IMG/VR virus record: IMGVR_UViG_2877285697_000003
Coordinates: 1-36,641 of that record
Length of the DNA: 36,641 nt
Reading direction: 5' to 3' (one strand)
Origin: a virus
Taxonomy: Duplodnaviria; Heunggongvirae; Uroviricota; Caudoviricetes
The notes under the pieces are model-generated. The model saw nothing but the letters and a program-made list of their open reading frames with translations. It did not search any database and was not told the DNA's origin. Below, piece by piece: positions 1,428-23,593 of the stretch (its first letter is position 1; each line of letters starts with the position of its first letter). The position numbers and the translations under genes were made by a program.

Positions 1428-2123
1428 TGAGGTGTACTGGCAATAGCGGACACTACCATTTGTTCTTTTTTTTAAGCAGCCATCTGATGATATTTTTCCC
1501 TGAAGGCTGCCGGGGAGATATTCCCCAGACGAGAGTGACGACGCTGACGATTGTAGAAAATCTCAATGTATTCCCGTATTACTGAGATGGCTTCATCCCG
1601 GTTATTAAAACGATAGTGGCTCAGGCTCTCATTTTTCAGCGTTCCCCAGAAGCTTTCCATCGGAGCGTTGTCGTAACAGTTACCTTTACGCGACATTGAT
1701 GTTTTCAGACCAAACTGCTCCTGTATGACCCGGTAATCGTATGCGCAGTACTGTGAACCTCGATCAGAGTGGTGGATTAGCCCGGCAGGTGGGCGCTGGC
1801 TCCTGAGCGCCATAAACAGGGCTTTACCTGTCAGCTCTTTTGTCATGCGCTCTCCCATGGCGTAGCCGACAATTTCGCACGTATAAACATCTTTGATGCC
1901 AGCGAGGTACAACCATCCCTCCTGTGTGGCAACATACGTCAGGTCCGCCACCCAGACCTGATTTGGTGCTGTAGGAGCGAACGTCTGGTTCAGCAGATTT
2001 GGCGCAACTGGCAGATTGTGGTTCGGGTTCGTAGTCGCTCTGAACTTGCGTTTCTGCTTACAGCGTAGCCTTAGCTCCTTACGAAGACGTGCCAGTCGGT
2101 CACGACCAACGATGATGCCATTC
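1428..2123 (-). mobile_element. IS600 (IS3 family) 3' fragment, about 696 bp, cut by IS911
   Basis: Terminal sequence TGAGGTGTACTGGCAATAGCGGACACTACC identical to the ends of the other IS600 copies at 6335 and 17550; orfB coding identical to 6378-7196; homology stops exactly at the IS911 left end. Confidence 0.85.
1472..2123 (-). pseudogene. IS600 orfB transposase, N-terminally truncated (ORF continues artifactually into IS911 to 2149)
   Basis: 225-aa ORF identical to the C-terminal 217 residues of the 272-aa orfB at 6378-7196; lacks orfA and the first 55 codons of orfB. Confidence 0.85.
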
Positions 2124-2195
2124 TGAAGTGGCACACTGAATTTGGCCACCTGAACAGAGGTGATATGCTCACCTCAGAACAACACAGGTGCTCCA

Positions 2196-3364
<1,169 letters not shown>

Positions 3365-3566
3365 CCACTTCACAGTCCTCAATCGCTGGTTCCGTGACGG
3401 AAGGGGGCGTCGTGTTCACGTTATACGCTGGGAGCCTGAAACACAGCGGGTTATTTATCTGCGTGATGGTTATCCATATGAATGTTTCAGCCCGTTGTGG
3501 TTGTTCAGGCGTGATTTTGTGGAGTGTGAAGCGCCGCCGGAATGACGGCACGGTATATACGAAAAA

Positions 3567-3926
3567 TTACGTCGCCTTGCCCAGCGTAAAATCAAAGTGG
3601 ATGTCGTCATACGGGAATGACGTTCCGCGCTCGCTTTTTTCCAGTAAACCGTTGCTGATGAGTGCGGTCACGTCAGTATGCACGCTTTTTACATCACGTC
3701 CAACCAGGGCTGCAATTTTTCGGATGGACATTTCTCCGGCACCAGTCATTGCCATCAGAATGTCCATGCGTTTTGGTGTCAGTACCTTATGCATCATTTG
3801 CCAGTCAGGAAATGAAATAACGTTTTCTCTGGTTGCTTTTGCTCCGGTAGCTGCTTCCTGGAACGCAGACAGCACATCAGCCGTGAAATTATCCATTGAC
3901 TCGATTCGGATTGTTACGGTTCTCAT
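3567..3926 (-). CDS. Winged-helix HTH DNA-binding protein (about 119 aa from internal ATG; ORF track gives 151 aa)
   Basis: Helix-turn-helix-like segment ..EMSIRKIAALVGRDVKSVHTDVTALISNGLLEKSERG..; ATG at 3926 is 1 nt after the stop of the upstream 95-aa ORF (TGAcATG on the minus strand), suggesting a two-gene operon. Confidence 0.55.
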   Translation of the reverse strand: MRTVTIRIESMDNFTADVLSAFQEAATGAKATRENVISFPDWQMMHKVLTPKRMDILMAMTGAGEMSIRKIAALVGRDVKSVHTDVTALISNGLLEKSERGTSFPYDDIHFDFTLGKAT

Positions 3927-3927
3927 G

Positions 3928-4215
3928 TCAGATACCTCTGCGGATGGATTTAACGTCAGCCAGAAAATCAGCGAGCAGTTGTTCAATGGTGACAAAGCTG
4001 GTGCTGACTTCCTGACTACCAATGTGTTTGTGATCGCCTTTACCCCGTTCGTTGTCGTAACGCATCACACACATGCCATCAACGACATAAGCCATGCTGT
4101 ATTTGTAGTTGTGCTGGCTACCCAATACAGCAGGCTCCACTTCCCATATGCGGATTCGTATGTATTCAGATTCACCGAGATGACGGATGAACTGTTTATA
4201 CAGTCTGGATGGCAT
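3928..4215 (-). CDS. Hypothetical 95-aa protein, upstream partner of the HTH gene
   Basis: Complete ORF, stop codon 1 nt before the downstream HTH gene start; no family recognised by eye. Confidence 0.5.
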   Translation of the reverse strand: MPSRLYKQFIRHLGESEYIRIRIWEVEPAVLGSQHNYKYSMAYVVDGMCVMRYDNERGKGDHKHIGSQEVSTSFVTIEQLLADFLADVKSIRRGI

Positions 4216-4383
4216 TTAAAGCTTCCTCTGGTTCTTGTTGTAAACAATAACAACAAGGCTTCGCGTTGTCCACAGCTACAACATTTTGATATTGATTCTG
4301 CAAGTCCGGGACGTTACACTGTTCCGGCACCTTATAAAACGGGTGCCGGGATTTGCACCCCGGAATTGATCAAGGCGATATAC

Positions 4384-4405
4384 GACGCGCCAGCGTCTTT
4401 TTTAT
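4384..4405 (+). terminator. Hairpin plus T-run (GACGCGCCAGCGTC TTTTTTAT) inside the divergent intergenic region
   Basis: GC-rich inverted repeat followed by a 6-T run on the + strand, about 165 bp upstream of the Rha-like gene start; could be an attenuator or small-RNA terminator. Confidence 0.35.
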
Positions 4406-4569
4406 CGTCCACGCTCACGCACGCCAGAATTATGGTGGGCTGGGCAGGGGAGCCGAAAGGCTCGCCGGTTTCCTTGATCGCCGGTAGTGCAAACCCTGTT
4501 CAGTCCGCCACCAGCGAGATTTGCACCTCCGGTGGTGGAAGTATTTCACCGATCAAGGAGGCTGCCATT

Positions 4570-5301
4570 ATGGCTACGATCCCAGTTTCCCCATTCCTCA
4601 AAATCGAAGTCGTCAACGGTAAGGCCGTTACTACATCTCTTTTCGGATATCTCAAACTGTTGCGCCTTGCTGGTGTTCCGGGTTATATTTCTCGCGTTGC
4701 TGTAAATCCAGCAACCGGGCTTCGCATCCCGAAACATCACACAGGGCTGACACGCCATAAGCGTGTTTTTTTGTCTACGTACGTCTATTCAATGGCGGCT
4801 CAGATGGGAGCTTCTTCGGAAGCGCCGGTTTTCCCTTGTGTGTCCGGTAATGCGAATCCTGTCTGGGCTGCCACCAATCATGGTTTCGCATCCGTGGGTG
4901 GTAGCTGTAAAGCACACACACAAGGGGCTGTCACCATGACTACCACCACTACTCACCCATTCCTCAAAATCGAAGTCGTCAACGGCAAGGCCGTTATTTT
5001 CTCTTTGCATGTGGCCTGCTACTTTAAGCGCATGCACCAGAACATCGTCGACAAAATCGAGTATCTGAACTGCTCGCGCGAATTTTTTACCCGCAATTTC
5101 ATACCGGGTACTTACCACATCTATGACGACTCTCTGCGTGGTTATTACATCACCCTTGATGGTCTGATGATGCTTCAGCTTGGGTTAAGTCTGCGCACAA
5201 TGCGGTACTACGAGAGTTGCATTGAAGCGTTCCATGAGGCTGAAACCAGCCTGAATCATACCGCTTTCCGTCGTAATCAATGGGAGGCGCGTCATGTGTA
5301 A
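4570..5301 (+). CDS. Rha-family-like phage regulatory protein (C-terminal half Rha-like; alternative start at 4936)
   Basis: ATG at 4570 preceded by AAGGAGG; residues from 4936 (MTTTTTHPFLKIEVVNGKAVIFSL..YYITLDGLMMLQLGLS..IEAFHEAE) resemble Rha/antirepressor-type N-terminal domains; the motif PFLKIEVVNGKAV is encoded twice by a 39-bp direct repeat. Confidence 0.45.
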   Translation: MATIPVSPFLKIEVVNGKAVTTSLFGYLKLLRLAGVPGYISRVAVNPATGLRIPKHHTGLTRHKRVFLSTYVYSMAAQMGASSEAPVFPCVSGNANPVWAATNHGFASVGGSCKAHTQGAVTMTTTTTHPFLKIEVVNGKAVIFSLHVACYFKRMHQNIVDKIEYLNCSREFFTRNFIPGTYHIYDDSLRGYYITLDGLMMLQLGLSLRTMRYYESCIEAFHEAETSLNHTAFRRNQWEARHV

Positions 5302-5527
5302 TAACCATTATTCAGATACCACTGTCACGGTAATTAAAAACCTGATGGATGCGCTTATTGACATCTCTGTTATTGCAGACAGGGTGCATAAGCACGCCGC
5401 CACTGAAACAGAATATACCGGGGCTCTCGTTCCTCATTCACTGACTGTCATGCAAATTAGCGCCGACCAGGCGCTGGAAACAGCCAGCAAAATGCTCATG
5501 GCTGATGTGCAGGAGGTACGTCCATGA
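5294..5527 (+). CDS. Hypothetical protein (77 aa)
   Basis: ORF whose start overlaps the stop of the upstream gene and whose stop overlaps the next start (ATGA), i.e. translational coupling. Confidence 0.4.
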   Translation: MCNNHYSDTTVTVIKNLMDALIDISVIADRVHKHAATETEYTGALVPHSLTVMQISADQALETASKMLMADVQEVRP

Positions 5528-5748
5528 TTCGCCGCATCGTTAATTCTCTGTATCACCGATACAACCGTTGCCCCCGTGTGGGGCAGTGGTTTGCCACCAG
5601 CAACGGTCACGTTCTGCGGGTTTGCCTGGTCAGCACCGAAAACCAGAAAGTTGTGTGTGAATTACTGGGGCGTAGCTACACCATCAGTTACCCACTGGTG
5701 GTGTTTCAGTCCGGAAAAATGTTTAAACGCCTGGGAGGTGCTGTGTGA
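5524..5748 (+). CDS. Hypothetical protein (74 aa)
   Basis: ATGA overlap with the upstream ORF and GTGA overlap with the downstream ORF. Confidence 0.4.
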   Translation: MIRRIVNSLYHRYNRCPRVGQWFATSNGHVLRVCLVSTENQKVVCELLGRSYTISYPLVVFQSGKMFKRLGGAV

Positions 5749-6044
5749 ACTGTTTTCAGTTTGTGTGCGGAAGTGTTTTCGATAATCCGATTCAGCGCCT
5801 GATTATGTTGCGTGTTTGGATGTCGGGGTCTTCAGACGGGGAAGGTGAGAGAGTTATTGAGCACCAAGTGCTTGCCGATTTTTGTTGCTGTTCAAAACAA
5901 GCGATGTTCAGAGAAACCCTGGCCCTGGAAAGGGCGGGACATCTGCATATCCGAAAAATTGCAACGCTTACCATTGATGCAAAAGCCCGACTCCAGCCTG
6001 CCCGTGGTTACACAATTGTCATGCCGCGTAAGGAGGCTGTATGA
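5745..6044 (+). CDS. Hypothetical protein (99 aa, GTG start)
   Basis: GTG start overlapping the upstream stop; ATGA overlap with the next ORF. Confidence 0.4.
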   Translation: MNCFQFVCGSVFDNPIQRLIMLRVWMSGSSDGEGERVIEHQVLADFCCCSKQAMFRETLALERAGHLHIRKIATLTIDAKARLQPARGYTIVMPRKEAV

Positions 6045-6334
6045 GTCGTTATGCCCCCACACCGGAAGTTATGGCTATTGGTCAAATTAATATTTCCGGC
6101 AATGTCACACCGACAACCTGGTGGAAACATATCCAGCTACCCAGTGGGCGTCCGGATGCGACAGCCATTGCGCTGCTTTCAGAGATTGTTTACTGGTATC
6201 GCCCGACAGAAGTCAGGGATGAGCATACAGGGGCTTTACTGGGATATCGCAAGCGTTTTCAGGGTGACAAGCTGCAAAGAAGCTATCAGGCGTTTGCTGA
6301 GCAGTTTGGCTTTGGGAAAAGGGAAACCGCAGAT
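6041..6334 (+). pseudogene. Hypothetical gene, 3'-truncated by IS600 (stop codon supplied by the IS terminus)
   Basis: ORF runs straight into the IS600 end at 6335 (..GKRETAD then TGA from TGAGGTGTACTGG). Confidence 0.45.
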
Positions 6335-7365
6335 TGAGGTGTACTGGCAATAGCGGACACTACCATTTGTTCTTTTTTTAAGCAGCCATCTGATGGTATT
6401 TTTCCCTGAAGGCTGCCGGGGAGATATTCCCCAGACGAGAGTGACGACGCTGACGATTGTAGAAAATCTCAATGTATTCCCGTATTACTGAGATGGCTTC
6501 ATCCCGGTTATTAAAACGATAGTGGCTCAGGCTCTCATTTTTCAGCGTTCCCCAGAAGCTTTCCATCGGAGCGTTGTCGTAACAGTTACCTTTACGCGAC
6601 ATTGATGTTTTCAGACCAAACTGCTCCTGTATGACCCGGTAATCGTATGCGCAGTACTGTGAACCTCGATCAGAGTGGTGGATTAGCCCGGCAGGTGGGC
6701 GCTGGCTCCTGAGCGCCATAAACAGGGCTTTACCTGTCAGCTCTTTTGTCATGCGCTCTCCCATGGCGTAGCCGACAATTTCGCACGTATAAACATCTTT
6801 GATGCCAGCGAGGTACAACCATCCCTCCTGTGTGGCAACATACGTCAGGTCCGCCACCCAGACCTGATTTGGTGCTGTAGGAGCGAACGTCTGGTTCAGC
6901 AGATTTGGCGCAACTGGCAGATTGTGGTTCGGGTTCGTAGTCGCTCTGAACTTGCGTTTCTGCTTACAGCGTAGCCTTAGCTCCTTACGAAGACGTGCCA
7001 GTCGGTCACGACCAACGATGATGCCATTCTCTGCCAGCTCCGTCTGGAGCCGCCGGGTTCCATATGTTTCGCGAGTGCGGATATGTGCCACCTTAATCTC
7101 CAGTTTTAGCCGCTCATCACTTTGTTTTCTGTCTGAGGGTTCATGCTGTACCCAGTTGTAATAACCGCTCCTGGATACACCAAATACCTGACACATCGCT
7201 TCAATGGGAAATTGTTGTCGCCATTGTTCGATTAACGCGTATTTTTCAGCGACTCCTGTGCAAAATACGCTGTTGCTTTTTTTAATATATCTCGCTCAAG
7301 GCGAGCTTCATTTAACGCCTTACGCAGTTGCAGAATTTCAGATTCCAGTTCAGCCACCGTGCGGG
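6335..7365 (-). mobile_element. IS600 copy, 5'-truncated (about 1031 of 1264 bp; lacks IRL and first ~57 codons of orfA)
   Basis: Right terminus TGAGGTGTACTGGCAATAGCGG at 6335; identity to the complete copy (16287-17550) ends near 7365 inside orfA, where molR-like sequence begins. Confidence 0.85.
6378..7196 (-). CDS. IS600 orfB transposase (272 aa)
   Basis: Nearly identical to orfB of the complete IS600 at 16689-17507 (two substitutions); IS3-family catalytic core. Confidence 0.9.
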   Translation of the reverse strand: MCQVFGVSRSGYYNWVQHEPSDRKQSDERLKLEIKVAHIRTRETYGTRRLQTELAENGIIVGRDRLARLRKELRLRCKQKRKFRATTNPNHNLPVAPNLLNQTFAPTAPNQVWVADLTYVATQEGWLYLAGIKDVYTCEIVGYAMGERMTKELTGKALFMALRSQRPPAGLIHHSDRGSQYCAYDYRVIQEQFGLKTSMSRKGNCYDNAPMESFWGTLKNESLSHYRFNNRDEAISVIREYIEIFYNRQRRHSRLGNISPAAFREKYHQMAA

Positions 7366-8893: not shown

Positions 8894-9659
8894 GGTAATG
8901 CTGCCAACTTACTGATTTAGTGTATGATGGTGATTTTAAGGTGCTTGCGTGGCTTCCATTTCCATCAGATGTCCTTCCTGCTCCGCTACTGAAGGCGTGG
9001 TGCGTAACGGCAAAAGCACTGCCGGACATCAGCGCTATCTCTGCTCTCATTGCCAAAACATGGCAACTACAGTTCACTTACACCGCCTCTCAGCCCGGTA
9101 CGCACCAGAAAATCATTGATATGGCCATGAATGGCGTCGGATGTCGCGCCAGTGCACGCATTATGGGCGTTGGCCTCAACACGGTTTTACGTCACTTAAA
9201 AAACTCAGGCCGCAGTCGGTAACCTCGCGCATACAACCGGGCAGTGATGTGATTGTCTGCGCTGAAATGGACGAACAGTGGGGCTACGTCGGTGCTAAAT
9301 CACGTCAGCGCTGGCTGTTTTACGCGTATGACAGGATACGGAGGACGGTTGTGGCGCACGTCTTCGGTGAACGCACTCTGGCCACACTGGAGCGTCTTCT
9401 GAGCCTGCTGTCGGCCTTTGAGGTCGTGGTATGGATGACGGATGGCTGGCCGCTGTATGAATCACGCCTGAAGGGAAAGCTGCACGTTATCAGCAAGCGT
9501 TACACTCAGCGCATTGAGCGACATAATCTGAATCTGAGACAACATCTGGCAAGGCTGGGACGGAAGTCACTGTCGTTCTCAAAATCGGTGGAGCTGCATG
9601 ACAAGGTCATCGGGCATTATCTGAACATAAAACACTATCAGTAAGTTGGAGTCATTACC
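8894..9659 (+). mobile_element. IS1, full length but with a 2-bp deletion that frameshifts insA
   Basis: Ends GGTAATGCTGCCAACTTACTGAT.. and ..ATCAGTAAGTTGGAGTCATTACC; insA region TCTCATTGCC--AAAACATGG differs from canonical TCTCACTGCCGTAAAACATGG, so the InsA frame is broken; insB is intact. Confidence 0.9.
9141..9644 (+). CDS. insB: IS1 InsB
   Basis: 167-aa translation recognised as IS1 InsB (..[54 protein letters not shown]..). Confidence 0.9.
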
Positions 9660-9846: not shown

Positions 9847-9997
9847 TATCTGAATTTCACCGCGCACCGCAGCGCATGATAACCACCGAACCTGCCCCTT
9901 TGGAATGAGCCTTTGAGGATACCAGTTAGTGCTGGCGAGCCTCGGTGGGCTGGTTTCCTGTGCGGCAAAGGTTCATTTCAAAGAACAGGTATACGAC

Positions 9998-10495
9998 ATG
10001 AAATCATTAACCCTCTTCAATCAGCCAATCCGTATCGGTGAAGATGGCATGATCTGCCTCACTGATATGTGGAAAGCCAGTGGTAAAAGTGAATCTGAAT
10101 CTCCGTACCACTACCTGCGAAACAAGCAGACCAAAGAGTTCTTAGCCGAGCTGGAGAAAAACCACGAATCTGTGGTTTTTACTGAGCGCGGTGTACACGG
10201 TGAAACATATGGCGGGAAGTTTGTTGCTTATGATTATGCAGCATGGCTAAACCCCGGATTTAAATATGCAGCCTATAAAGTCCTGGATGACTACTTCACC
10301 GGAGAACTTCAGCATCGCAACAGCTTAAGTGCGCAGCTCAATATGAAGTGTCATGAGTTTGATCAGAAAAAAGATATGGCGAGCTTCTGTGGACAAGGGC
10401 TGGCGGCATGGCGCTATACGAAGCCAGTGTTGGTCGCTGAGATTAACTCCCTGGCTAACCAGCTGCAGATAACGATCCCCGGGCTTCCGGGATGA
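9998..10495 (+). CDS. KilA-N domain protein (phage antirepressor-like DNA-binding protein)
   Basis: Start chosen at ATG 9998 with upstream AGG; translation (..ICLTDMWKASGK.. GGKFVAYDYAAWLNPGFKYAAYKVLDDYF..) matches the KilA-N domain pattern. Confidence 0.7.
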   Translation: MKSLTLFNQPIRIGEDGMICLTDMWKASGKSESESPYHYLRNKQTKEFLAELEKNHESVVFTERGVHGETYGGKFVAYDYAAWLNPGFKYAAYKVLDDYFTGELQHRNSLSAQLNMKCHEFDQKKDMASFCGQGLAAWRYTKPVLVAEINSLANQLQITIPGLPG

Positions 10496-11360: not shown

Positions 11361-11854
11361 ATGGATCGAGAGTTAAAAAATCTGACGCTGAATATCAGTC
11401 AACTGGCGGCACTGTCAGGTGTACATCGCCAGACTGCTGCGGCAAGGCTGCAAAATCTACCCGTTGCAGGGGGCATGAAAGCAACCTCAAGCTTTATCGG
11501 GTGGTTGATATTGTGTCGGCATTTCTGGCATTACCACCGCCGGTTGCAGAAGGCGAAATGGACGCGCATGAGCGCAAAGCCTGGTATCAGTCTGAACGTG
11601 AGCGTCTTAAGTTCGAACAGGAAACGGCACAACTCATTCCGGCCAGTGATGTCAGACGGGAGTTTGCCATCTGGGCAAAAGCGGTCGTGCAGGTGCTGGA
11701 GACATTACCGGATATTCTTGAACGTGACTGCGGTCTGCAGCCTGCCGCTGTGAGCCGTATTCAGTCCATTATTGATGATCTGCGCGATCAGATAGCCCTG
11801 CGGGTGACTGAAGCAGGTGCGGATGATGAGGAGGAATTACAGCAGGAGGAGTAA
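11361..11854 (+). pseudogene. Terminase small subunit (Nu1-like), frameshifted within a G-run near 11469-11477
   Basis: N-terminal HTH part (MDRELKNLTLNISQLAALSGVHRQTAAARLQNLPVAGG) is in one frame (ORF 11361-11753) and the remainder (HESNLKLYRVVDIV.. to stop at 11854) in another (ORF 11267-11854); junction at GCAGGGGGCATG. Confidence 0.7.
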
Positions 11855-13956
11855 TGCTGAATCAGGAAACCGCAAAGGCAGCACGAACCGATTCAGGTTA
11901 TATCCTTCGCGCACCAAGACGAATGCGGGTTGCTGATGCCGTTGCTCAGTATATGCGGGTGCCCATGGGGGCAGGGAACTCAGTCCCGTGGGATCCGCTG
12001 GTGGCACCGTATGTTATTGAGCCGATGAACTGCCTGGCCTCGCGTGAATACGACGCAGTGATATTTGTTGGCCCGGCACGAACCGGCAAGACTATCGGCC
12101 TGATTGACGGCTGGGTGATTTACAACGTGATTTGCGATCCTGCTGATATGCTGATCATTCAGATGACGGAGGAAAAAGCCCGCGAACACTCCAAAAAACG
12201 ACTCGCCAGAACGTTTCGCGTCAGCCCGGAAGTGGTCAGTCGCCTGAGTCCGAACAAAAATGACAACAACGTTTATGACAGAACATTCCTTGCTGGCAAC
12301 TACCTGAAAATCGGCTGGCCGTCAGTCAATATCATGTCCTCATCAGATTATAAATGCGTCGCGCTGACGGATTATGACCGTTTTCCGGAAGATATTGATG
12401 GTGAGGGGGATGCTTTCTCTCTTGCCTCAAAACGTACCACAACATTTATGTCCAGTGGTATGACGCTGGTGGAGAGTTCCCCCGGCAGGGATGTGAAGGA
12501 TGTGAAATGGCGACGGACTTCACCGCATGAGGCTCCACCAACCACGGGGATACTGTCGCTCTATAACCGTGGCGATCGCCGTCGCTGGTACTGGCCCTGT
12601 CCACACTGTGGTGAGTATTTTCAGCCCTGCGGCGATGTGGTTGCTGGTTTCCGTGATATTGCCGATCCCGTGCTGGCAAGTGAGGCGGCTTATATTCAGT
12701 GTCCTTCCTGTTCAGGACGGATTATGCCTGAACAAAAACGTGAGCTGAACGGACGTGGGGTCTGGTTGCGGGATGGTGAATCCATCAATGCGGATGGCAG
12801 TCGTTATGGTGATCCCAGGCGTTCACGTATTGCGTCATTCTGGATGGAGGGTCCGGCAGCTGCTTACCAGACACTCTCGCAACTCGTTTACAAACTGCTT
12901 ACTGCAGAACAGGAATACGAGACAACCGGAAGTGAAGAAACACTCAGGGCGGTTATCAACACCGACTGGGGATTACCTTATCTTCCCCGCGCCAGCATGG
13001 AGCAACGAAAAAGTGAACTGCTTGAGCAGCGGGCAGAGCCTGTTCCTCCCCGCTGCGTGCCGGATGGTGTTAATTTCCTGGCGGCGACAGTGGATGTGCA
13101 GGCGGGACGTCATCGCCGTTTTGTGGTTCAGGTAACGGGTTATGGTTGCCGTGGCGAACGCTGGATTATTGATCGTTACAACATCACGCAGTCATTGCGT
13201 TGTGACAACAACGGAGAAAGCCTGCGAATTGATCCTGCTGGTTATCCTGAGGACTGGGATGTCCTGCTGACGGATGTTTTTCATAAAAGCTGGCCGTTGG
13301 CCTCCGATCCTTCTCAACAAATGCGACTGATGGCAATGGCGGTGGACTCCGGCGGTGAAGACGGGGTCACTGATAATGCCTATAAATTCTGGCGTCGTTG
13401 CCGTCGTGATGGCCTTGGTAAACGTATTTACCTGTTTAAGGGCGACAGCATCCGACGCGCAAAACTGATCACCCGTACATTCCCTGATAACACCGGACGA
13501 ACGGGCCGACGGGCGCAGGCCGCAGGTGATGTGCCGCTCTGGCTTCTTCAGACGGATGCCCTGAAAGACCGGGTGAATAACGCGTTATGGCGTGACTCGC
13601 CAGGTCCCGGCTATGTGCATTTCCCTGACTGGCTGGGGAGCTGGTTTTACGACGAACTGACGTATGAAGAGCGGAGCAGTGACGGGAAATGGAGTAAGCC
13701 GGGTCGAGGTGCCAACGAAGCTTTTGACCTGATGGTGTATGCCGAGGCTCTGGTCATTCTGCATGGTTACGAGAAAATTCAGTGGCCGGATGCGCCGGAA
13801 TGGGCATGCAGGGAAACCTGGCTGGAGCGTGTCAGGGACGATGCCGGACTGTCAGCCTCGCCGGAGCCGATATCCGTGTCCGTTAAAAAAAAGAAACGAA
13901 AAAAAGTGGTGCCTGATGAAGAAAACCCATGGGTGACTTCCGGAGGATGGTTGTGA
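11854..13956 (+). CDS. Terminase large subunit (lambda gpA family), 700 aa
   Basis: ATG overlaps the terS stop (TAATG); translation has the gpA-family ATPase region (..VIFVGPARTGKT..) and length typical of lambda-type TerL. Confidence 0.9.
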   Translation: MLNQETAKAARTDSGYILRAPRRMRVADAVAQYMRVPMGAGNSVPWDPLVAPYVIEPMNCLASREYDAVIFVGPARTGKTIGLIDGWVIYNVICDPADMLIIQMTEEKAREHSKKRLARTFRVSPEVVSRLSPNKNDNNVYDRTFLAGNYLKIGWPSVNIMSSSDYKCVALTDYDRFPEDIDGEGDAFSLASKRTTTFMSSGMTLVESSPGRDVKDVKWRRTSPHEAPPTTGILSLYNRGDRRRWYWPCPHCGEYFQPCGDVVAGFRDIADPVLASEAAYIQCPSCSGRIMPEQKRELNGRGVWLRDGESINADGSRYGDPRRSRIASFWMEGPAAAYQTLSQLVYKLLTAEQEYETTGSEETLRAVINTDWGLPYLPRASMEQRKSELLEQRAEPVPPRCVPDGVNFLAATVDVQAGRHRRFVVQVTGYGCRGERWIIDRYNITQSLRCDNNGESLRIDPAGYPEDWDVLLTDVFHKSWPLASDPSQQMRLMAMAVDSGGEDGVTDNAYKFWRRCRRDGLGKRIYLFKGDSIRRAKLITRTFPDNTGRTGRRAQAAGDVPLWLLQTDALKDRVNNALWRDSPGPGYVHFPDWLGSWFYDELTYEERSSDGKWSKPGRGANEAFDLMVYAEALVILHGYEKIQWPDAPEWACRETWLERVRDDAGLSASPEPISVSVKKKKRKKVVPDEENPWVTSGGWL

Positions 13957-23282: not shown

Positions 23283-23357
<75 letters not shown>

Positions 23358-23360
23358 ATA

Positions 23361-23436
<76 letters not shown>

Positions 23437-23438
23437 GC

Positions 23439-23515
23439 TGGCCCACCACCGAGGACTCGAACCTCGCACCGTCAACTTAGAAGGTTGATGCTCTATCCGG
23501 ATGAGCTAGTGGTGG
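23439..23515 (-). tRNA. tRNA-Arg (anticodon UCU), atypical C1:G72 acceptor end
   Basis: 77 nt: acceptor CCACCAC/GTGGTGG, D-arm GCTC..GAGC, anticodon stem TCAAC/GTTGA with loop CTTCTAA, T-arm CGAGG TTCGAGT CCTCG, discriminator G plus CCA. Confidence 0.65.
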
Positions 23516-23516
23516 T

Positions 23517-23593
23517 TGGTGGCCCTTGCTGGACTTGAACCAGCGACCTGGCGATTATGAGTCGCTCGCTCTGACCAACTGAGCTAAAGGGCC
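23517..23593 (-). tRNA. tRNA with CAU anticodon (Ile2/Met type, ileZ-like of lambdoid phages)
   Basis: 77 nt: acceptor GGCCCTT/AAGGGCC, D-arm GCTCAGTTGGTCAGAGC, anticodon loop CTCATAA, T-loop GGTTCAAGTCC, 3' ACCA. Confidence 0.75.

Follow-up and report, generated by a model that had tools for sequence, protein, structure and literature searches.

The small RNA IsrK has already been equated with SeqA, and the antisense RNA C4 with CI (PMC4825925, PMC3632133, PMC10111431). Systems of this kind have been noted in lambdoid prophages, APSE phages and phage-inducible chromosomal islands (PICIs) (PMC4825925, PMC3632133, PMC10111431, PMC7313666), and the co-occurrence of isrK and c4 ahead of Bro/Rha-type genes has been reported (PMC7313666, PMC10111431, PMC3632133). 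In Gifsy-1, IsrK ends at a terminator equivalent to the one described below, the read-through mRNA is translationally silent, and IsrK acting in trans activates translation of that mRNA 139-fold (PMC4825925); Gifsy-1 is also the only precedent for Hfq binding and for a transcript ending at the terminator (PMC4825925). IsrK and the C4-like RNA STnc1160 are highly transcribed in lysogens (PMC7067206). For P4, CI RNA is a termination factor according to the P4 work as summarised in PMC4825925. A paper on Shiga toxin (Stx) 'Eru' phages treats the corresponding region as an Ash/Rha protein domain and leaves the RNAs unmentioned (PMC8951638). Here, we analysed a 36,641-nucleotide (nt) stretch of DNA from a virus of the Caudoviricetes (IMG/VR record IMGVR_UViG_2877285697_000003, positions 1 to 36,641; the window), in which an earlier reading of the sequence, hereafter the original prediction, had flagged the interval 4216-4569 as a divergent control region with hairpins and a terminator-like element. 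We conclude that this interval is very probably the head of an RNA switch of the P1-immI/P4-immunity type, in which an IsrK-type RNA and a C4 antisense RNA gate translation.

The window was scanned with Rfam at curated thresholds (isrK, 50 bits; C4, 45 bits; c4-a1b1, 46.7 bits), and the order isrK then C4 was found twice. The first copy (module 1) and its parts are as follows.

4292-4297 and 4315-4320, + strand: promoter-like site (-35 TTGATT, 17-nt spacer, -10 TACACT; score 8/12)
4327-4403, + strand: isrK-1, an IsrK/SeqA-type small RNA (Rfam RF01394, folds, complementarity, covariation)
4324/4327-4349, + strand: hairpin 1 of isrK-1, in which CCGGCACC (4324-4331) pairs with GGTGCCGG (4342-4349)
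4347-4350 and 4359-4362: third hairpin, CGGG/CCCG, between hairpin 1 and the terminator
4349-4358, + strand: a1 of isrK-1, GGATTTGCAC, within hairpin 2 and complementary to a'
4368-4375, + strand: b1 of isrK-1, GATCAAGG
4384-4403, + strand: terminator of isrK-1 (GACGC 4384-4388, loop GCCA, GCGTC 4393-4397, T6 4398-4403)
4428-4515, + strand: C4-1, a C4/CI-type antisense RNA (Rfam RF01695), with the conserved AUGG at 4432 and the 3' end ...GCCACCA
4469-4480, + strand: b' loop of C4-1, TTTCCTTGATCG
4486-4496, + strand: a' segment of C4-1, AGTGCAAACCC
4518-4526, + strand: target a2, GATTTGCAC
4550-4559, + strand: target b2, CGATCAAGGA, overlapping the Shine-Dalgarno sequence AAGGAGG (4555-4561) of ATG 4570
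4570-4695, + strand: remnant of an open reading frame (ORF1) with a Rha-like N-terminus (MATIPVSPFLKIEVVNGKAVTTSL...), continuing in frame into module 2

Both RNAs of module 1 scored well above their gathering scores, i.e., 63.4 bits versus 50 for isrK-1 (E = 1.9e-11, whole window) and 83.5 bits versus 45 for C4-1 (full length), and both isrK copies of the window span positions 1-77 of the isrK model, which is its full length. The c4-a1b1 model (RF03163, gathering score 46.7) reached 46.5 bits in module 2 (4683-4735), just under its threshold, and 19.8 bits in module 1; the region is covered instead by the overlapping isrK model. The two inverted repeats of the original prediction were both recovered within 1 nt (the first starts at 4324, not 4325), and its terminator-like element proved to be the isrK terminator, i.e., the 3' part of the 63.4-bit match. 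More specifically, RNAfold extends hairpin 1 to 11 pairs (-19.6 kcal/mol, z = -5.2; none of 200 shuffles reached this stability), and the terminator hairpin (-8.5 kcal/mol, z = -3.4 by folding) is also called by a terminator scan. Folding of both strands over 4320-4410 likewise favoured the + strand (-36.6 versus -33.1 kcal/mol; z -4.0 versus -2.8), on which alone a T-run lies 3' of the terminator hairpin. Terminator-like sites in 3500-5400 were not above chance (4, compared with 1.9 ± 1.2 in shuffles) and were not used as evidence; that the element exceeds chance follows from the full-length isrK match, and its hairpins are also conserved with compensatory changes in relatives. A further helix, GGCGAUA (4374-4380) with UAUCGUC (4403-4409), encloses the isrK-1 terminator and is possible only in read-through transcripts; comparable outer helices occur in other modules (e.g., GCACA/UGUGC).

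C4-1 folds at -49 kcal/mol (z -5.65), and its exposed a' and b' segments are complementary both to a2 and b2 downstream, with b2 lying over the ribosome binding site, and to a1 and b1 upstream. The b' loop of module 1 forms 10 perfect base pairs (bp) with its b2 (duplex energy -23.2 kcal/mol), and each a', in both modules, has a 7-nt core match to its own a1 and its own a2.

We collected 95 sources by a pattern scan of viral contigs and from annotated records, and two covariance models made from window-like copies yielded 114 C4 and 112 isrK elements; isrK lay 15-65 nt upstream of C4 in 110 of the 114 C4 copies. The C4 structure was retained in 57 distinct relatives, with 99.3% of pair cells paired and 20 of 27 pairs changed on both sides, whereas slid controls were only 33-52% paired. 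A lack of hairpin conservation in related elements had been named beforehand as part of what would refute the original prediction; in 60 distinct relatives, however, the stems of isrK hairpins 1 and 2 were kept with compensatory changes (89.4% paired; 9/12 pairs changed on both sides; for example, GCACC/GGTGC versus GTTGC/GCAAC). The isrK terminator was left out of the covariance-model structure because MAFFT put two isrK terminator classes out of register, and it was assessed separately by folding: among 77 distinct isrK copies, 71 have a 3' T-run of at least 5 and 76 a 3' hairpin of -6 kcal/mol or stronger. Pairing between loop and target covaried as well. Across 31 distinct b' loops (95 loci), a complement of at least 7 nt was found in the loop's own downstream 82 nt in 21/31 cases versus 24/930 non-cognate pairings (p ~1e-13), and in its own upstream region in 18/31 versus 35/930 (p ~1e-13), with the matches at fixed positions. 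Regions of Stx-converting phages and of phiP27 share 88-95% identity with the window module. In locus L073 (3855-6411), the C4 core pattern occurs exactly three times, ~1.27 kb apart; these copies had no a/b complements and no covariance-model match, and they were set aside as possibly an unrelated repeat.

The promoters of the modules are proposed on account of their positional conservation rather than their score. In both window modules, and in every relative among those listed, the -10 element ends 6 nt before isrK position 1; a promoter-like site of at least 8/12 stands at this fixed offset in 74 of 77 distinct modules, although the hexamers differ. The layout in module 1 agrees with the annotated layout of P1 P1c4-a1-b1.

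The original prediction had missed two features inside or beside the flagged interval, namely, C4-1 and a second module.

4660-4935, + strand: module 2, a second complete unit with its own promoter-like site and different a/b sequences, 366 nt downstream of module 1
4660-4665 and 4684-4689, + strand: promoter-like site (-35 TTGCGC, 18-nt spacer, -10 TATATT), inside the ORF1 remnant
4696-4771, + strand: isrK-2 (Rfam isrK, 62.2 bits), with hairpin 1 GTTGCTG/CAGCAAC
4718-4727, + strand: a1 of isrK-2, GGCTTCGCAT
4738-4746, + strand: b1 of isrK-2, CACACAGGG
4749-4767 plus T7, + strand: terminator of isrK-2 (terminator scan)
4788-4878, + strand: C4-2 (Rfam C4, 74.2 bits; fold z -5.45), with AUGG at 4792 and the 3' end ...GCCACCA
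4833-4843, + strand: part of the b' loop of C4-2, which includes CCCTTGTGTGT
4850-4859, + strand: a' of C4-2, ATGCGAATCC
4882-4891, + strand: target a2, GGTTTCGCAT
4916-4926, + strand: target b2, ACACACAAGGG, overlapping the Shine-Dalgarno sequence AAGGGG of ATG 4936

In module 2, b' and b2 form 11 perfect bp (-21.7 kcal/mol). The non-cognate b'/b2 duplexes reach only -13.2 and -10.9 kcal/mol (the latter for b' of module 2 with b2 of module 1), so that cognate pairing is favoured by ~10 kcal/mol. A 41-bp repeat at 4590-4630 recurs at 4956-4996 and bounds the extra 366 bp, which are present in the window and in seven other loci; in E. coli O121 strains that lack the 366 bp between the repeats, module 1 is joined straight to the Rha-like body. 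Wherever module 2 was seen, it stood second in a close tandem (360-366 nt spacing), and the modules preceding it were of at least 4 different kinds. Arrays of two or three modules occur in 17 of the 95 loci, many at a spacing of 656 nt, which corresponds to a full module plus a Rha-like ORF. No a'/b' combination was shared by any of 21 within-locus module pairs; since the chance expectation is ~1, this is a description and not a test. The array units are complete isrK-C4-Rha-like sets, and every unit has a promoter-like site to itself and a distinct a'/b' address; three modules stand at 656-nt spacing in L007 and three in L072, further arrays are found in L004, L005, L024, L032, L069 and L079, and a' and b' sequences appear to be recombined in varying combinations across loci. 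None of the open-access text that we searched, including the reports of isrK and c4 in lambdoid, Stx and APSE phages and PICIs, describes modules in series whose pairing sequences differ.

We identify the element by its family membership, its architecture, its complementarities and its covariation, and the best-supported reading of how it works merges the P1/P4 and Gifsy-1 models. Transcription would start at ~4327 from the weak sigma-70-like promoter with its -10 at 4315-4320, and most transcripts would end at the hairpin and T6 run of 4384-4403, giving an IsrK/SeqA-type RNA of ~77 nt that includes a1 and b1. Read-through transcripts would contain the C4/CI-type RNA (4428-4515) together with the gated mRNA; the b' loop and a' would then pair with b2 and a2, and pairing at b2 would hide the Shine-Dalgarno sequence of ATG 4570 and block ribosome entry. 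Such pairing could occur in cis, within the unprocessed leader, or in trans, were C4 to be excised, by analogy possibly by RNase P, at which the tRNA-like 3' end ...GCCA-CCA of both copies hints. By extension from P1 and P4, the untranslated, translationally coupled operon would be exposed to Rho-dependent termination. The a1 and b1 sequences are second copies of the targets and would compete for a'b', so that an increase in IsrK-type RNA would titrate C4 away and turn on translation, in the manner of Gifsy-1 IsrK. Module 2 would form the gate directly ahead of the Rha-like gene and the replication-initiation genes. In the predicted minimum free energy folds, the leader of module 1 pairs b' with all 12 nt of b2 and the Shine-Dalgarno sequence, as expected of an OFF state, and the leader of module 2 pairs a'b' with a1/b1 and leaves the Shine-Dalgarno sequence mostly free, as expected of an ON state; the two folds may be seen as competing switch states, as thermodynamic predictions only.

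Several points weigh against this reading. A generic promoter scan called the site of neither module and found no + strand promoter in 4216-4330, and both proposed promoters are weak matches (8/12). The a' segments distinguish the two modules poorly in duplex energies, and a separate specificity of the modules therefore rests mainly on b'. We infer the transcript ends, the processing and the regulation, including Rho polarity and activation by the short RNA. The P1 model, with C4 as the repressor, and the Gifsy-1 model, in which IsrK activates an ORF that starts within C4, differ, and the sequence by itself cannot choose between them. A simple switch model does not account for the stop-free frame that runs across the RNA genes. 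Finally, insertion sequences (IS) replace the cI/cro side and cut the gated operon at ~6378, so that the prophage is degraded and the switch may no longer control anything useful. The surroundings of the modules are listed here.

1472-3364, 6378-7196 and 8949-9644: IS copies, with IS3-family OrfA/OrfB and, at 8949-9644, IS1-like InsA/InsB
3567-3926, - strand: HVO_A0114-family DNA-binding protein (Pfam, E = 6.5e-25)
3928-4215, - strand: TumE-family toxin (Pfam TumE, E = 2.8e-15)
4272-4267 and 4249-4244, - strand: promoter-like site of the TumE cassette (-35 TGGACA, 17-nt spacer, extended -10 TATTGT; promoter scan)
4234-4241 and 4250-4257: perfect 8-bp inverted repeat, CTTGTTGT/ACAACAAG, bracketing the TumE -10
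4936-6337, + strand: gated operon, comprising a Rha-like ORF (4936-5301) and then 5294-5527, 5524-5748, 5745-6044 and 6041-6337, with overlapping stop and start codons

The Rha-like ORF scored 29.7 bits with Pfam Phage_pRha against a cut-off of 29.9. The operon gave PHROG matches to 995 (E = 1.3e-56) and to 4617 and 270 ('replication initiation protein'), and its last two ORFs are those that match replication-initiation PHROGs. On the other side, what the original prediction had called a repressor-like cassette turned out by Pfam to be a pair of TumE toxin and HVO_A0114 DNA-binding protein, not a phage repressor; the two genes lie 1 nt apart, RefSeq names in a 99.8% identical E. coli locus agree, and by this adjacency the pair is a putative toxin-antitoxin-like insert, with the 8-bp repeat as a candidate operator for autoregulation. 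In intact relatives (Stx2_EH2201, phiP27), cI and cro are followed by Rha, then by the module and its Ash/Rha ORF and then by the replication genes; in the window, the integrase is directly followed by IS copies in place of cI and cro. The transposase at 6378-7196 is nearly identical to a truncated copy at 1472-2149. In Stx2_EH2201 (L095, 7712-7745), a GC hairpin follows an A-run 3' of the upstream Rha gene and would terminate the opposite strand.

It is conceivable, if rather doubtful, that both modules, though their sequences are intact, no longer function and are carried along as cargo in a decayed prophage, an alternative that concerns their present usefulness and not their identity. The IS copies in the place of cI and cro, the truncation of the gated operon after ~1.4 kb and the additional IS copies beyond it would all fit, as would the rarity of the region, at least 80% of which (of 2.1 kb) is present in only 8 of 5,426 complete E. 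coli genomes. Yet both modules are full-length and retain all their pairings, and seven complete E. coli genomes carry the region at 99.7-99.8% identity; moreover, 543 of the 5,426 genomes carry related sequence, and C4 and IsrK acting in trans could act on incoming or co-resident cognate phages.

Less well does the view survive that the region is simply coding, i.e., that it encodes the N-terminal 'Ash' domain of an Ash-Rha protein, as in PGAP, and that the hairpins are incidental; we regard it as improbable. RefSeq/PGAP 'ash family protein' ORFs do cover the interval (4180-5301 in the window, 2181-3302 in L001 and 2181-2936 in L002); they begin inside the oppositely oriented TumE gene and, in the window, cross two isrK and two C4 genes. 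Pfam PF10554 (Phage_ASH; cut-off 26 bits) matches 4180-4569 with 46.7 bits (E = 4.8e-12), 4432-4569 with 39.1 bits (E = 1.1e-9) and the stretch over C4-2 with 37.1 bits. The same profile, however, matches the P4 'cI gene product' ORF, the founding member of the family, which overlaps CI RNA, and a Phage_ASH match therefore does not show that a protein is made; Pfam Phage_ASH is a conceptual translation of the isrK-C4-target module. The annotated start at 4180 lies in antisense TumE, upstream of the module promoter, and has no Shine-Dalgarno sequence; the equivalent ATG 7821 of L095 has none either, and no credible start codon turned up when the sequence upstream of isrK was searched for one.

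A point for coding is the avoidance of stop codons in one frame. Read in phase with the downstream ATG, the stretch from isrK to that ATG has no stops in 66 of 82 distinct modules, compared with 1 and 23 for the other two frames, and in the window this frame is free of stops through isrK, C4 and targets in both modules and in the whole tandem. Measured against column-permuted controls that preserve composition and pairs, stops in this frame occurred in 1/33 C4 sequences (12.1 ± 2.0 expected) and in 3/27 isrK sequences (9.7 ± 1.9 expected), whereas the other frames behaved as simulated; module length is a multiple of three in 54 of 67 cases. In addition, orf45 of Gifsy-1 starts at the same AUGG, at the beginning of the C4-like part, and its translation is required (PMC4825925). 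On the other hand, a test of variability by codon position gave no clear periodicity, in P1 a stop codon within the b' loop interrupts the C4 frame, which has no stop in the window, and the compensatory pair changes and loop-target covariation are signals at the RNA level. Taken together with the poor start, these make coding as the sole explanation unlikely; given the open frame and the orf45 precedent, some transit of ribosomes through the RNA module seems likely.

The stop avoidance in one frame suggests overlapping constraints from RNA and coding, and we tentatively raise the possibility that the RNA switch is at the same time a translated frame and that serial modules with different pairing make up a two-stage gate. 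If so, ribosomes that start from AUGG 4432, from ATG 4570 or further upstream would read through module 2, melt its terminator and C4 fold and make a longer Ash-Rha isoform, while transcripts from the internal promoter would be gated by C4-2 only. Arrays with non-identical a'/b' would, in addition, equip a prophage with RNA immunity to several types of phage simultaneously.

Two further alternatives are much weaker. That the inverted repeats serve as DNA operators in a divergent promoter region and are recognised by the HVO_A0114 regulator or the Rha-like protein is very improbable: the interval does lie between divergent genes, perfect palindromes are typical of operators and the repeat at 4234-4257 does bracket the predicted TumE -10, but both flagged hairpins lie downstream of the + strand promoter and within a full-length isrK match, the second of them has a T-run on one strand only, their stems vary by compensatory substitution with pairing kept, and in P4, P1 and many phages without the TumE cassette the element has unrelated neighbours. 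No more plausible is a classical cis attenuator or riboswitch, with the terminator switched by a leader peptide, ligand or protein and no trans-acting RNA; an intrinsic terminator in a 5' leader and the conserved outer helix spanning it, which could compete with other structures, would suit it, but only isrK, C4 and c4-a1b1 came at or near a gathering score in 4150-5350 (no riboswitch or leader family did), the flanks of the terminator covary with downstream C4 loops and not with an anti-terminator, and the homologous RNA of Gifsy-1 acts in trans. Of the alternatives of the original prediction, attenuation or a small regulatory RNA, the second is thus borne out by membership in the IsrK family, whereas classical attenuation gives way to a short trans-acting RNA, which fits better. 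Altogether, the flagged feature is real and its earlier interpretation was essentially right.

For annotation, these results mean that the stretch named 'ash family protein' in RefSeq corresponds to four RNA genes, two of the IsrK type and two of the C4 type, together with the targets; papers on the regulatory region of Stx phages still call the module a protein domain of unknown function. In phiP27-like and Stx-converting prophages, the switch is placed in the early operon before the replication genes, and it is therefore a candidate second layer of immunity and induction control in Shiga-toxin phages.

Elsewhere in the window, a protein with KilA-N and ORF11CD3 domains (Bro network), of a domain-swapping, antirepressor-like family, is encoded at 9992-10495, beyond the IS1 copy. 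Four clustered tRNA genes (23286-23593, - strand) resemble those found ahead of stx in related phages, except that they lie on the strand opposite to the early operon. Rfam matches to CssrB, a chromosome-encoded Shigella small RNA (230 bits), and to IS009 (129 bits), at 35105-35284 and 36041-36244, suggest that the background is Shigella or enteroinvasive E. coli; among E. coli strains, CFSAN029787 matches best (99.8% identical).

Compared with the known systems, the window shares with P1 immI the order promoter, a1, b1, C4, a2, b2, start codon, and even the distance from b2 to the start codon is the same (11 nt, to icd in P1 and to the ATG in the window). P1 itself scored 68.8 bits with the C4 model, 51.0 with a1b1 and 35.1 with isrK, the last being below threshold. 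P1 gates icd-ant, whereas the window gates a Rha-like regulator and then replication genes: its downstream ORFs are of Rha-like, unknown and replication-initiation types, and not the icd/ant of a P1-type immI with a C1-controlled operator at the c4 promoter. A C1 operator is neither annotated nor evident in the window, in which operators were not specifically sought. Two modules stand in series in the window, and one in the ~650 bp of P1 scanned around immI. According to Citron and Schuster (1990), the heteroimmunity of P1 and P7 reportedly has its specificity in short loop sequences, and short loop sequences would carry specificity in the window as well.

The likeness to RNA-based immunity in satellite-type elements that the original prediction had drawn holds at the level of the families, as the isrK and C4 models match the seqA region, terminator included (60.8 bits), and CI (74.9 bits) of P4, in the same order and orientation as in the window. 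In both, the switch stands ahead of replication functions and the RNA is overlapped by an open 'Ash' frame. Between isrK and C4 lie 24 nt in the window versus ~107 nt in P4, and the carrying element differs as well: P4 is a satellite, whereas the element in the window is a prophage of full size that has lambda-like late genes and a 700-aa ORF (11854-13956) which, read from its sequence alone, is a candidate large terminase, and its relatives are Stx-type phages of 42-90 kb. Unlike P4, these relatives keep the protein cI/cro upstream, and the RNA is therefore to be seen as a second layer in the early operon, not as the sole immunity factor.

With the isrK-orf45 (STnc1160)-anrP locus of Gifsy-1, the window has the isrK family in common and, as predicted for the window, a terminated short RNA and a read-through mRNA from one promoter, followed by a Rha/antirepressor-like regulator (PMC4825925). 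In Gifsy-1, orf45 terminates and anrP is made by translational coupling, whereas in the window the AUGG frame stays open and in phase up to and into the Rha-like ORF, and b2 is followed by a strong Shine-Dalgarno sequence and an ATG. The downstream cargo differs too, consisting of replication genes in the window and of the isrJ and antQ circuit in Gifsy-1. The element itself is ordinary and catalogued, of a well-described kind; only the modules in series, which differ in their pairing sequences, and the frame kept free of stops go beyond the catalogue.

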